Part shown: piece by piece, positions 48,001 to 51,000 of the stretch | How the letters are laid out: each line of letters starts with the position of its first letter | Numbering within the stretch: the first letter of the stretch is position 1 | Sequence record: KP682381 | Direction: 5' to 3' (one strand) | Source of the DNA: Escherichia phage PA28 | Length of the DNA stretch: 61,292 nucleotides | Position numbers: made by a program

Positions 48001-51000
48001 CGAAATGATGCTGCTTGACGCGAAGTTAATACCTGTTGATATCAAATTTGAAAAGGACCTTGGATATCCATGCGCAATCATGCCTGCACTGGTCGGGTAT
48101 TATAACTGGAAAAGAACTCCTTATGATCGACCGATTTATACCACATCCACTGGTGCTACAGGAAATAAAATATATTCCTGTGAGCATTATTCCGGCGGTG
48201 CAACATGGGATATTCGAAAGCCGTATATAGATAAGGTCTTGGTTATTAATACATCAGTATATGATTAGTTGAAGCGAGTCTTTAATATTCATTTAAAATG
48301 TCTAAAAAGATGTATTATTAAAAAGTTTAGCGTGTTATCTGAATACAGGATATCTTAAATGAAGAGTATAGCAACACTGGTTGTGTGTGCAATCTCCGGG
48401 ATTGCCTGTGTAAATTTATCTGCACATGCAGCAGAAGGAAACCATACAATTTCTCTGGGGTATGCGCACTTTCAGTTTCCGGGACTGAAGGATTTTGTAA
48501 AGGATGCGACTGCTCATAACAGGGAGACTTTCAGTCATTTCGTCAACAGAAACTACTTTTCTTCATTGGGCGAATATACAGATGGTCGGGTCAGTGGATA
48601 TGAAGGCAAGGATAAAAATCCACAGGGCATTAATATCAGGTATCGCTACGAGATAACGGATGATTTTGGCGTTATCACCTCTTTTACATGGACGCGTTCT
48701 CTCACTAACTCACAGACATTTATTGATGTGCAGTCAGCCGATCATACCAGGAAGATTAAGAATCCGGCAGCTTCTGCCAGAACGGATATCAGGGCGAATT
48801 ACTGGAGTCTGTTAGCGGGGCCTTCATGGCGGGTTAATCAGTACATGAGCTTATATGCGATGGCAGGGATGGGCGTTGCTAAAGTTAGCGCTGACCTGAA
48901 AATTAAGGACAATATTAACAGTAGTGGCGGATTTTCTGAAAGCAACAGCACGAAAAAAAACTCCCTTGCGTGGGCTGCAGGTGCACAGTTTAACCTGAAT
49001 GAGAGTGTTACACTGGATGTGGCTTACGAAGGTTCCGGCTCTGGCGACTGGCGCACGAGTGGAATTACTGCTGGCATTGGCCTGAAATTCTAACCTGTAT
49101 CCGGTAACCGTTTACTACCCGCTGTGATGGCGGGTTTTTTATTGCCCGTACAGGGCAAAAACCGTAAATTATGCGTGGGTGCCTTTCGGCTGATGGCTGG
49201 AGGGTGAACCTGAAGGCCTGATGTGGAAAGGCCCCGAGTCAACTTAACGTTAACCCGAGGCCCTAACACTTCGTACCTTGACAAGTAGAAGGTTAGCGCC
49301 TCTCCACTCAGGAGGCAAGCGCTATGTCGCAAAAATCGCTTATCACCGTCACAATTTGTATGACGGTTATCTTCACCATCTGGATGTTACACGGCTCGTT
49401 GTGTGAGTTCCGGCTGAATTTGTGGGGAGCGGAGTTTGCGGCGTTCTTACAGTGTAAGCAGTAGGAAAACCGCGGCGGGGACGAAAGTCCCCGTCAACTG
49501 GTTGCTGAGGTTCAGCCGATATGGCACCCGTTTCAGGTGAGAGAATGAACGATAAAATTCTCCGGTATATGCAGCGTGTGGTGAGAAATTCCCGCAACCC
49601 TGAATTTATGAATGAAGTTAAAGACGCCTGCCTTAAAAAGCAGGCGTTTTGTTTTGAGGCACCTGATGGCTTTCTGGTGCTGCGTTCTGTGCTCAGTGCT
49701 GATGGTATCCCTTATGTTCTGGTGTTGCTGGGCGTGTGTACGGGGAGTAACAGTGTTGAGCGTTATCTGCCGGAGGTGAAGACATTAACCCGTCTGGCTG
49801 GCGGACGTTGGGCTGAATTTCATACGGCAAGGCGGGGATTTATCCGGCTGGGAAAACGTCTGGGCTTTGAGCGAATGCCGGATGATGAGGATGGCTTCAT
49901 GGTGTTCAGGATAGCGGTCTGACTGCCACAGTTTTCATCATCGTGTTTAAACCAACATTGCAATTCACATTCTGACCCTGCTCCGGCAGGGTTTTTTTAT
50001 TATCCAGGGGGCCATTATGGGTGGAAGTAAAGGTGGTGGTGATACCAAAGTAAAACCAACAGCAGCGCAAATAGCACAGGAAGAAGTGGCCTGGAAAGGG
50101 TGGCAGGATTACAAAAATATCCTCCGCCCGGCTGAAGATAACTTCATGGAAAAGGTCGATGACCTGAACAGTGAGCAGCAGTACGACAATATTGCTGGCA
50201 CCACAAATCTGGGGTATCAGAAACAGTTTGGCGAAGCACGGAAGGAGCTGGCGGGTAATCTTGCTCAGTCCGGTGTTGACCCGTCCAGTGGTCGCTTTAA
50301 CGCGGTAATGAATGCGAACCAGAGTGATCAGGTAACCGGGCAGATTGACACAACCACACGGGGGCAGGTATCGCAGGCAGATAAGTATGTTGCCGGGCTA
50401 CAGGATGTTGCAGCTCTCGGTTCAGGTCAGAAGGCGGATGCGTTACAGAGTTTTAACTCGCTGGCAGACAGCAGTCTGGCAAAAGCTAAATCGGACGCAC
50501 AGGCTGCGTTTACGAAACAGCAGGGGCGAGCCTCTCTTGTTGGCGCTGGTTTGGGTGCGGTAGGTGCATATGCGATGCATAAGGCTGGTGGTAGCGGAGG
50601 AAGTGGCGGTGCTAAAACACCTGGCACCGGCGCTAATGCCATTCAGTATCAGGCTCAGAACTGGAGACTGTGATTATGGAGTACGGTAAATACGAAACAC
50701 TTGCGAGATACGGTTATACCGGAGCAGCCCGCCCTCAGGGGGACTGGCAGACATCCGCAGCGCTGACCCGCCAGCAATACGACGACTGGCGCACCAGATA
50801 TTTACCCCGTGTAGCAAGGCTGGCTGACCTTGGCGAGAACAACAGCCTGATGAATGCACAGCTTGCCCGGGTGGGCGGCCTTGCCACTTCCAGTCTCCGT
50901 ACAGCGCAGATGGCGCAGGATAACCAGATGGCGAGATACGGGGTAAGCCGCCCGGATAATCCCGACAGTAATACGCTGGGGTTACGTAATGCCCTGGCAA

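Follow-up and report, generated by a model that had tools for sequence, protein, structure and literature searches.

A HokA-like toxin gene beside lom in Escherichia phage PA28: a probable hok/sok-type module with no conserved mok

Does the short open reading frame (ORF) next to lom in Escherichia phage PA28 encode a Hok/Gef toxin and, if so, how might the toxin be controlled? We addressed this question by computational analysis of a 61,292-nucleotide stretch of DNA (sequence record KP682381), called the window here, which is a 933W-like Stx2a phage. A preliminary description, made from the sequence alone, had proposed that the ORF is a Hok/Gef-like type I toxin gene with the layout of a hok/sok-type module. 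We now believe that the ORF very probably belongs to a type I toxin-antitoxin module of the hok/sok type, complete and autonomous, which the prophage carries as a moron in the interval from lom to its next late gene. The layout that had been described is supported; the antisense RNA is predicted, and a canonical mok is not conserved.

The hok coding sequence occupies 49324-49464 of the plus strand, has an ATG start and specifies a 46-amino-acid peptide, MSQKSLITVTICMTVIFTIWMLHGSLCEFRLNLWGAEFAAFLQCKQ, so that position, strand, start codon and peptide are all as first described. A profile search, which had been suggested as a check, matched the peptide to Pfam HOK_GEF (PF01848) at 33.2 bits against a gathering cut-off of 22 (E 4e-8, profile positions 6-42 of 42), and PHROG 251 ('MokW-like host killing') matched it with E 2.8e-24. 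The best match in NCBIfam is HokA (NF007290), at 38.4 bits, which is under the equivalog cut-off of 89. K-12 HokA is also the nearest named relative by BLASTP, with 46% identity over 37 amino acids. The peptide has the Hok/Gef layout of about 45-55 residues, one N-terminal hydrophobic helix (here residues 6-22, LITVTICMTVIFTIWML) and a tail with L-C-E and E..A.F; L26-C27-E28 as well as E37, A39 and F41 are invariant when it is compared with HokA and HokW. The toxin is thus predicted to have a single transmembrane helix and a periplasmic tail bearing C27 and C44. Both of the Hok cysteines relevant to toxicity are hard-coded in the genome, as in HokA. As the match is far above chance, we assign the ORF, on its sequence, to the Hok/Gef family as a HokA-like member.

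The closest relatives are 46-amino-acid proteins from E. coli, Shigella and Salmonella, all of which carry the source name 'Hok/Gef family protein'. M1, Q3, K4, C27, A39, L42, Q43, C44 and K45 are invariant among them. We compared 59 distinct alleles from phage and genome collections, with subsets of 39, 34 and 14 alleles used in single analyses, and the 46-residue frame is intact in 56 of the 59. The ratio of non-synonymous to synonymous substitution rates (dN/dS) is 0.19-0.35 against relatives at 75-82% DNA identity and ranges from 0 to 0.35 overall, and the Stx-phage alleles show 4-5 synonymous and 0 non-synonymous differences. These values indicate purifying selection on the hok ORF.

Much of this was already on record. 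In E. coli genomes that carry the gene, PGAP names its product 'Hok/Gef family protein', and phage records label it 'small toxic polypeptide', 'MokW-like host killing' or 'Hok/Gef family protein', with 'hypothetical' or 'none' in many of them. The module is present in 1,750 of 5,426 complete E. coli genomes and in 196 phage records. In a preprint surveying Hok diversity, Escalera-Maurer et al. (bioRxiv, 2025-26) include an identical peptide with an identical 141-nucleotide coding sequence as 72_1589, the representative of a high-abundance cluster (cluster 72), which was cloned as LRP157 under an arabinose promoter; their Table S2 gives GGAGG as its Shine-Dalgarno sequence (SD). In the arabinose-induced assay, which included LRP157, 42 of 45 homologs were toxic, and 72_1589 is not among the three named as non-toxic. 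Inducible expression, which the preliminary description had suggested as a test of toxicity, had therefore in effect been done. With the gene-family assignment and a toxicity assay of the exact sequence both public, the locus is not new, and the novelty implied at first does not hold for a gene annotated as Hok/Gef in RefSeq genomes and phage records. By design, the study of Escalera-Maurer et al. dealt with coding sequences only, leaving Mok, Sok and the mRNA elements unannotated and the position next to lom undiscussed. Our literature searches on the lom-adjacent locus (by locus tag) and on the P2-like context described below returned nothing relevant. The module was also found in genomes labelled Xanthomonas pisi (an 857-bp contig with a 100% peptide match), a Planococcaceae metagenome-assembled genome and Vagococcus sp.; in these assemblies it is probably contaminating E. 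coli or Salmonella DNA.

How far does the module extend? Homology among the alleles runs from a -35 region at about 49142 to GGCACCC (49523-49529), with divergence on both sides. The module occurs in three unrelated contexts, namely Stx phages, the ends of P2-like prophages after ogr, and a urease island, and the block common to them covers query positions 28-400, or 49157-49529 of the window. Because the same block occurs after ogr in P2-like prophages and in the urease island, the module of about 390 bp (about 49142-49529) is an autonomous mobile unit.

Within these limits, we predict a hok promoter at 49142-49170 on the plus strand, with a -35 hexamer TTGCCC (49142-49147), a 17-nucleotide spacer and a -10 hexamer TAAATT (49165-49170). 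The predicted start is at about G49177, in a layout like that of hokW (TAGAAT, 6 nucleotides, GGGTGC). Both this promoter and the antisense promoter described below were placed by collinearity with hokW plus conservation, not by a consensus scan. The predicted full-length hok mRNA occupies 49177-49529 (plus strand), as judged from the shared homology block, the fold and an Rfam match; its 3' end is uncertain. The ribosome-binding site pointed out earlier is the hok SD, GGAGG, at 49311-49315, 8 nucleotides before the ATG. For the full-length RNA (49177-49532) the folding energy is -152 kcal/mol, and z against shuffles is -5.9. The length of about 120 nucleotides first given for the structured leader becomes about 147 if the start is near 49177.

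The minimum-free-energy fold of the full-length RNA pairs 49177-93 with 49512-29, as tac and fbi elements would. The tac element (49177-49193, plus strand) consists of GGGUGCC (49177-49183) and UCGGCUGA (49186-49193) and was located from minimum-free-energy folds, pair counts and the alifold consensus. The fbi element (49512-49529, plus strand) consists of UCAGCCGA (49512-49519) and the GGCACCC mentioned above, just after which allele homology stops. The long-range pairing that the preliminary description had thought worth checking is therefore present in the fold, and it is conserved: in the pair counts for 39 alleles, the first helix is supported in 97.7% and the second in 86.3% of cells, compared with 27-45% for a slid partner. 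In P2-like copies, where the module stands directly after ogr, a conserved intrinsic terminator, AACCCGCAGCGTAAAAACTGCGGGTTTTCTTTTT, lies about 30 nucleotides past fbi, at the prophage end.

The tac element has two possible partners, fbi in a closed form, or sequence within 49177-49235 in an open form (the tac stem). When RNAalifold was run on the full alignment, it picked the local tac stem over the tac/fbi pairing. We read this model result as the alternative open form, which need not contradict the closed one. In the fold of a 3'-truncated RNA (49177-49500), the tac stem forms together with a target hairpin (49257-49302, plus strand), in which GAGGC.CCUAAC (49257-49267) pairs with GGUUAG.CGCCUC (49291-49302), as it does in the alifold consensus. 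The GAGG of this hairpin corresponds to the mok SD in hokW and in the hok locus of plasmid R1. An anti-Shine-Dalgarno (anti-SD) sequence, CCUCUCC (49299-49305, plus strand), changes partners between the two forms: in the closed form it is bound to the hok SD, in the open form to the upstream GAGGC. An ATG inside the conserved GAUGUGGAAAGGCCCC opens an 8-codon ORF in the window (49221-49247). In 7 of the 59 alleles this ATG is the start of a long -1 frame ORF that crosses the hok start, and in 7 more alleles such an ORF begins at another upstream ATG, at -130 from the hok ATG. Because the GAUGUGGAAAGGCCCC ATG is inside the tac stem, it is probably not translated.

Past the stop codon there is a GC-rich hairpin of 9 bp with a GAAA loop (49474-49495, plus strand), seen in the fold and already noticed in the preliminary description. 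Two of its pairs show compensatory change (AU:21/GC:18 and AU:20/CG:14/GC:4 among the alleles). It is likely to mark the 3' end of the processed, active mRNA. In silico, truncation makes the ribosome-binding site easier to open: the opening cost is 14.1 kcal/mol in the full-length RNA, 9.1 in the truncated RNA, and 13.4 in the truncated RNA with the Sok target masked. The decrease of about 5 kcal/mol upon truncation has the same pattern in 12 of 14 alleles. Folding also indicates that masking the Sok target in the truncated RNA sends the anti-SD CCUCUCC back to the hok SD.

Is there an antisense gene opposite the leader? At the sequence level its features, a promoter and a hairpin, are present. 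A minus-strand promoter, which had been suggested as something to look for in this region, is predicted at 49290-49318, with a -35 hexamer TTGCCT (49318-49313), a 17-nucleotide spacer and a -10 hexamer TAACCT (49295-49290). In 933W the annotated sokW start is preceded by exactly these two hexamers at exactly this spacing, and TAACCT is found in 33 of 34 distinct alleles. The predicted Sok-like RNA (49226-49282, minus strand; about 57 nucleotides, with approximate ends) was placed by its collinearity with the annotated sokW and by its fold. It would have a single-stranded 5' tail, a 16-bp hairpin (49228-49264) and a 3' CCUUUCC tail, and it ends in GGGGCCUUUCC, paralleling sokW. With a start near 49282 it folds at -32.5 kcal/mol (z = -6.6), and the base of the hairpin is conserved, with some compensatory changes. 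A hypervariable patch (49264-49289, found by allele comparison) covers the 5' tail of the Sok-like RNA and the target loop; its roughly 20 nucleotides of tail and target vary among Stx-phage alleles that are otherwise at least 94% identical. This is the pattern expected if co-resident copies avoid cross-talk.

Based on these folds and on homology, we propose a model for how hok could be regulated. A weak constitutive promoter would start the hok mRNA near 49177. The full-length RNA would be locked by pairing of 5' GGGUGCC..UCGGCUGA with the 3' fbi, UCAGCCGA..GGCACCC, and in this locked form the hok SD would be held in a local CUCC/GGAG hairpin. Trimming of the 3' end to the hairpin at 49474-49495 would free the 5' end to fold on itself, upon which the upstream GAGGC would capture the anti-SD and the ribosome-binding site would loosen. 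The second part of the model involves the Sok-like RNA of about 57 nucleotides, which would be made from the TTGCCT-17-TAACCT promoter and would pair with 49226-49282. Because the bound region includes GAGGC, Sok binding would restore the hairpin that sequesters the SD, and it would probably trigger cleavage by RNase III. As there is no conserved mok ORF, repression would act on hok directly, with no leader peptide. We infer this mok-independent switch from thermodynamic models.

Several points weigh against a complete and autonomous module controlled in this way. The hok promoter agrees with the consensus at 8 of 12 positions and the Sok promoter at 7 of 12, and a consensus (sigma-70) scan of the locus missed both and reported no promoter-like site; both promoters, all RNA ends and the Sok-like antisense RNA itself are predictions. 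The Rfam family RF01794 (sok) matches 49177-49335 on the plus strand with the full model covered (37.9 bits, E 2.7e-6), short of the gathering score of 59, and it went unreported in a scan of the window at gathering thresholds. It may be added that this 157-nucleotide model aligns with the sense strand, over the stretch between the predicted 5' end of the mRNA and the hok start; it appears to describe the hok leader, not only an antisense RNA of about 60 nucleotides. In this phage no intrinsic terminator was found between fbi and the next gene (ATG at 49545), and the next terminator-like sites are at 49629-49646 (weak) and 49974-49993. The natural 3' end of the hok mRNA may therefore lie in or beyond the next gene. 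Covariation is uninformative because the tac and fbi arms hardly vary; as it stays within shuffle controls for these nearly invariant arms, what is supported is conserved pairing potential only. The predicted switch is missing from the two most divergent alleles. For 72_1589, toxicity is deduced from statements in the preprint's text, not from its figure. Finally, a search for mok in three frames across the 59 alleles gave no conserved start codon or ORF. Because mok is needed for translation of R1 hok and is not conserved here, the regulatory logic of R1 cannot simply be carried over.

This last point bears on a rival explanation, in which the locus is a canonical three-gene hok/mok/sok system. 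In R1, the mok AUG is at 116-118 and the hok AUG at 174-176; Hok is made only if the 70-codon mok is translated, and it is on mok that Sok acts. A 42-codon ORF at 49278-49406 (plus strand), initiated by TTG and overlapping the hok start, could be the mok of such a system, with Sok blocking it and hok translation coupled to it as in R1. It is in the same relative frame as R1 mok, so that the hok AUG begins at position 2 of a mok codon, its TTG coincides with the predicted 5' end of Sok, and some alleles have longer ORFs in this frame that start from upstream ATGs. However, the TTG is present in only 5 of the 59 distinct alleles, the 933W/Sakai allele has no start codon in this frame and a stop at -28, and the nearest GAGG ends 17 nucleotides before the TTG. 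In both alternative frames ATG, GTG and TTG are missing from most alleles, and a TAG at 49294, within the conserved AGGTTAGCGCC, closes the hok frame itself. The GAGG is retained in the hok leader without a start codon after it; in 933W, which served as a positive control, the mokW ATG comes 8 nucleotides after GAGG. The TTG ORF is thus probably allele-specific and not a functional mok, and we regard a canonical system as unlikely. Tentatively, and with some doubt, we suggest instead that the 46-amino-acid Hok lineage of cluster 72 could be a naturally mok-less variant, in which GAGG would serve as an anti-anti-SD; when Sok covers it, CCUCUCC would re-pair with the hok SD. We searched the literature on mok-less hok loci and found no paper describing one.

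Could the locus instead be a silent relic, with an intact toxin that is either not expressed or beyond activation, an argument made before about chromosomal hok loci? The weak consensus matches of both promoters would fit such a relic, as would the finding that the terminator after the P2-context copies is not found after this one. But the regulatory elements, from the -35 to fbi, are all intact and conserved between diverging flanks, the ORF is under purifying selection, and the module is as widespread as the counts above indicate. In addition, the Sok-tail patch diversifies while the remainder stays constant, which is not a pattern of decay. We consider it very improbable that the locus is a relic. 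That the ORF is no gene at all, having arisen by chance in a structured lom 3' or intergenic region, is hardly credible. The missing annotation in the Sakai reference and the 'hypothetical' or 'none' of many phage records might suggest it, but the Pfam, PHROG and NCBIfam matches together with codon-level conservation already refute it, the differences among Stx-phage alleles are synonymous only, and lom has its own terminator (49117-49135) upstream of the module. The reading of a complete hok/sok-type module remains the one we favour.

How is this locus related to known hok systems? We considered whether it is the published hokW-sokW and rejected this, as HokW has 51 amino acids (MKQQKAM...), shares 35% identity with the 46-residue peptide, and is encoded about 13 kb away in 933W. 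In that phage hokW and the annotated mokW and sokW are at 58.4-58.7 kb, and the lom-adjacent hok locus is at about 45.4-45.9 kb. Searching the window with the primer and arm sequences of hokW gave no match, and the 933W hokW segment (57237-60286; hokW-mokW-sokW with neighbours L0135-L0139) has no counterpart there. Because of this, the lom-adjacent locus is a second, distinct hok locus; 933W and Sp5 carry both, and PA28 carries only the lom-adjacent one, whose ORF is the only Hok-like ORF within the window.

The two loci nevertheless share the same phage lineage and module plan. They are collinear element by element: a -10 hexamer, 6 nucleotides and GGGUGC; GAAAGGCCCC; GAGGC; AGGTTAGC; AGGCAAG; the start codon; L-C-E; the hairpin past the stop codon; and GCACCC. 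Besides the Sok promoter, TTGCCT-17-TAACCT, and the hairpin, they have the tac/fbi pair GGGUGC and GCACCC in common. Unlike the locus described here, hokW-sokW has an annotated mokW, whose ATG follows GAGG as noted above, in frame with hokW and overlapped by the 5' end of sokW. In Sp5, sokW neutralises HokW, which is found in the inner membrane, and hokW-sokW speeds killing and doubles phage release after mitomycin C; both the function of sokW and its -10 element have been put to experimental test (Takada et al. 2021, PMC8621323). The second, lom-adjacent locus is not mentioned in that paper.

In its predicted features the locus also resembles the R1 hok/mok/sok (parB) system: a form closed by tac/fbi pairing, trimming of the 3' end as the way to activation, a stem-loop that protects that end, a GAGG whose partner alternates between an upstream and a downstream box, and an antisense RNA facing the leader. 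In R1, the stem-loop equivalent to our post-stop hairpin protects the truncated mRNA. The R1 locus differs in being plasmid-borne and mediating post-segregational killing, and R1 Hok has 52 amino acids compared with 46 here. Where the 46-residue peptide has its second cysteine, R1 Hok has a tyrosine. As for hokA-sokA of E. coli, HokA is the closest named protein, both of its cysteines are likewise hard-coded, so that no TadA editing is needed, and the hokA mRNA also starts with GGGUGC and has GCACCC downstream. The hokA gene is chromosomal, between cspA and glyS, and its K-12 copy is disrupted by IS150. DNA comparison with the reconstructed K-12 hokA locus gave no significant alignment and no similarity beyond short motifs.

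The gene upstream of the module, at 48359-49093, encodes an Ail/Lom outer-membrane protein (Pfam E 6e-32), so that lom does stand beside the ORF, as had been described. This Lom homolog has 244 amino acids; the Ail_Lom profile match begins at residue 88 and leaves an N-terminal extension of about 85 residues outside the matched part. The next gene 3' of the module belongs to PHROG 610. Late read-through transcription would also cover the hok locus. A 431-nucleotide region that includes the module is 100% identical to several Stx2a-converting phages (06-3462, Stx2a_F723, P27) and 96.3% identical to 933W and VT2-Sakai/Sp5.

Elsewhere in the window we made some observations that concern the phage as a whole. 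Three tRNA genes, STnc100 (24614-24819, 208 bits) and the anti-stx2 small RNA (sRNA) AsxR (24821-24873, minus strand) lie within 22959-24873, a set that fits the usual surroundings of stx2. Two full-length matches to the ALIL pseudoknot, at about 121 bits each (25866-25982, minus strand; 43548-43664, plus strand), are frameshift signals of the IS3 family and suggest two insertion-sequence copies in opposite orientation. Other RNA-family matches above gathering scores are a C4 antisense RNA with its a1/b1 target and isrK (19015-19210), a lambda cIII thermoregulator element (10337-10395, minus strand) and sRNA-Xcc1 (3956-4045, minus strand).

What might the module do for the element that carries it? 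Because it sits in unrelated mobile contexts, a selfish, stabilising (addiction) function is suggested, and we speculate that the module acts as an addiction-type stabiliser. In PA28, by analogy with hokW-sokW in Sp5, it may make killing or lysis faster once the prophage is induced. By analogy with R1 hok/sok, for which it has been reported against T4, abortive infection is a further possibility.

In sum, what remains of interest in this locus is that mok seems to be absent and that Sp5 and 933W have a second hok locus that was overlooked. The gene is easily overlooked: in the Sakai reference it is unannotated between ECs_1236 (lom) and ECs_1237, with the equivalent of 49177-49530 at 1292387-1292815, and in 933W its ORF is labelled 'hypothetical'. 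If the lineage is indeed a mok-less variant, a corollary is that in Sp5 and 933W, with their two hok loci, the lom-adjacent one may buffer the modest phenotype of the published hokW-sokW deletion; phages without hokW, such as PA28, would have no other module of this kind. With mok apparently missing, the locus is a natural place to test whether Sok can control Hok translation without a leader peptide, a modest mechanistic question in a system that is well understood. Stx2 phages of the Sp5/933W type have two hok loci, of which only one was deleted in the published functional study, and the second is relevant to work in enterohaemorrhagic E. coli on lysis timing, Stx release and prophage stability.

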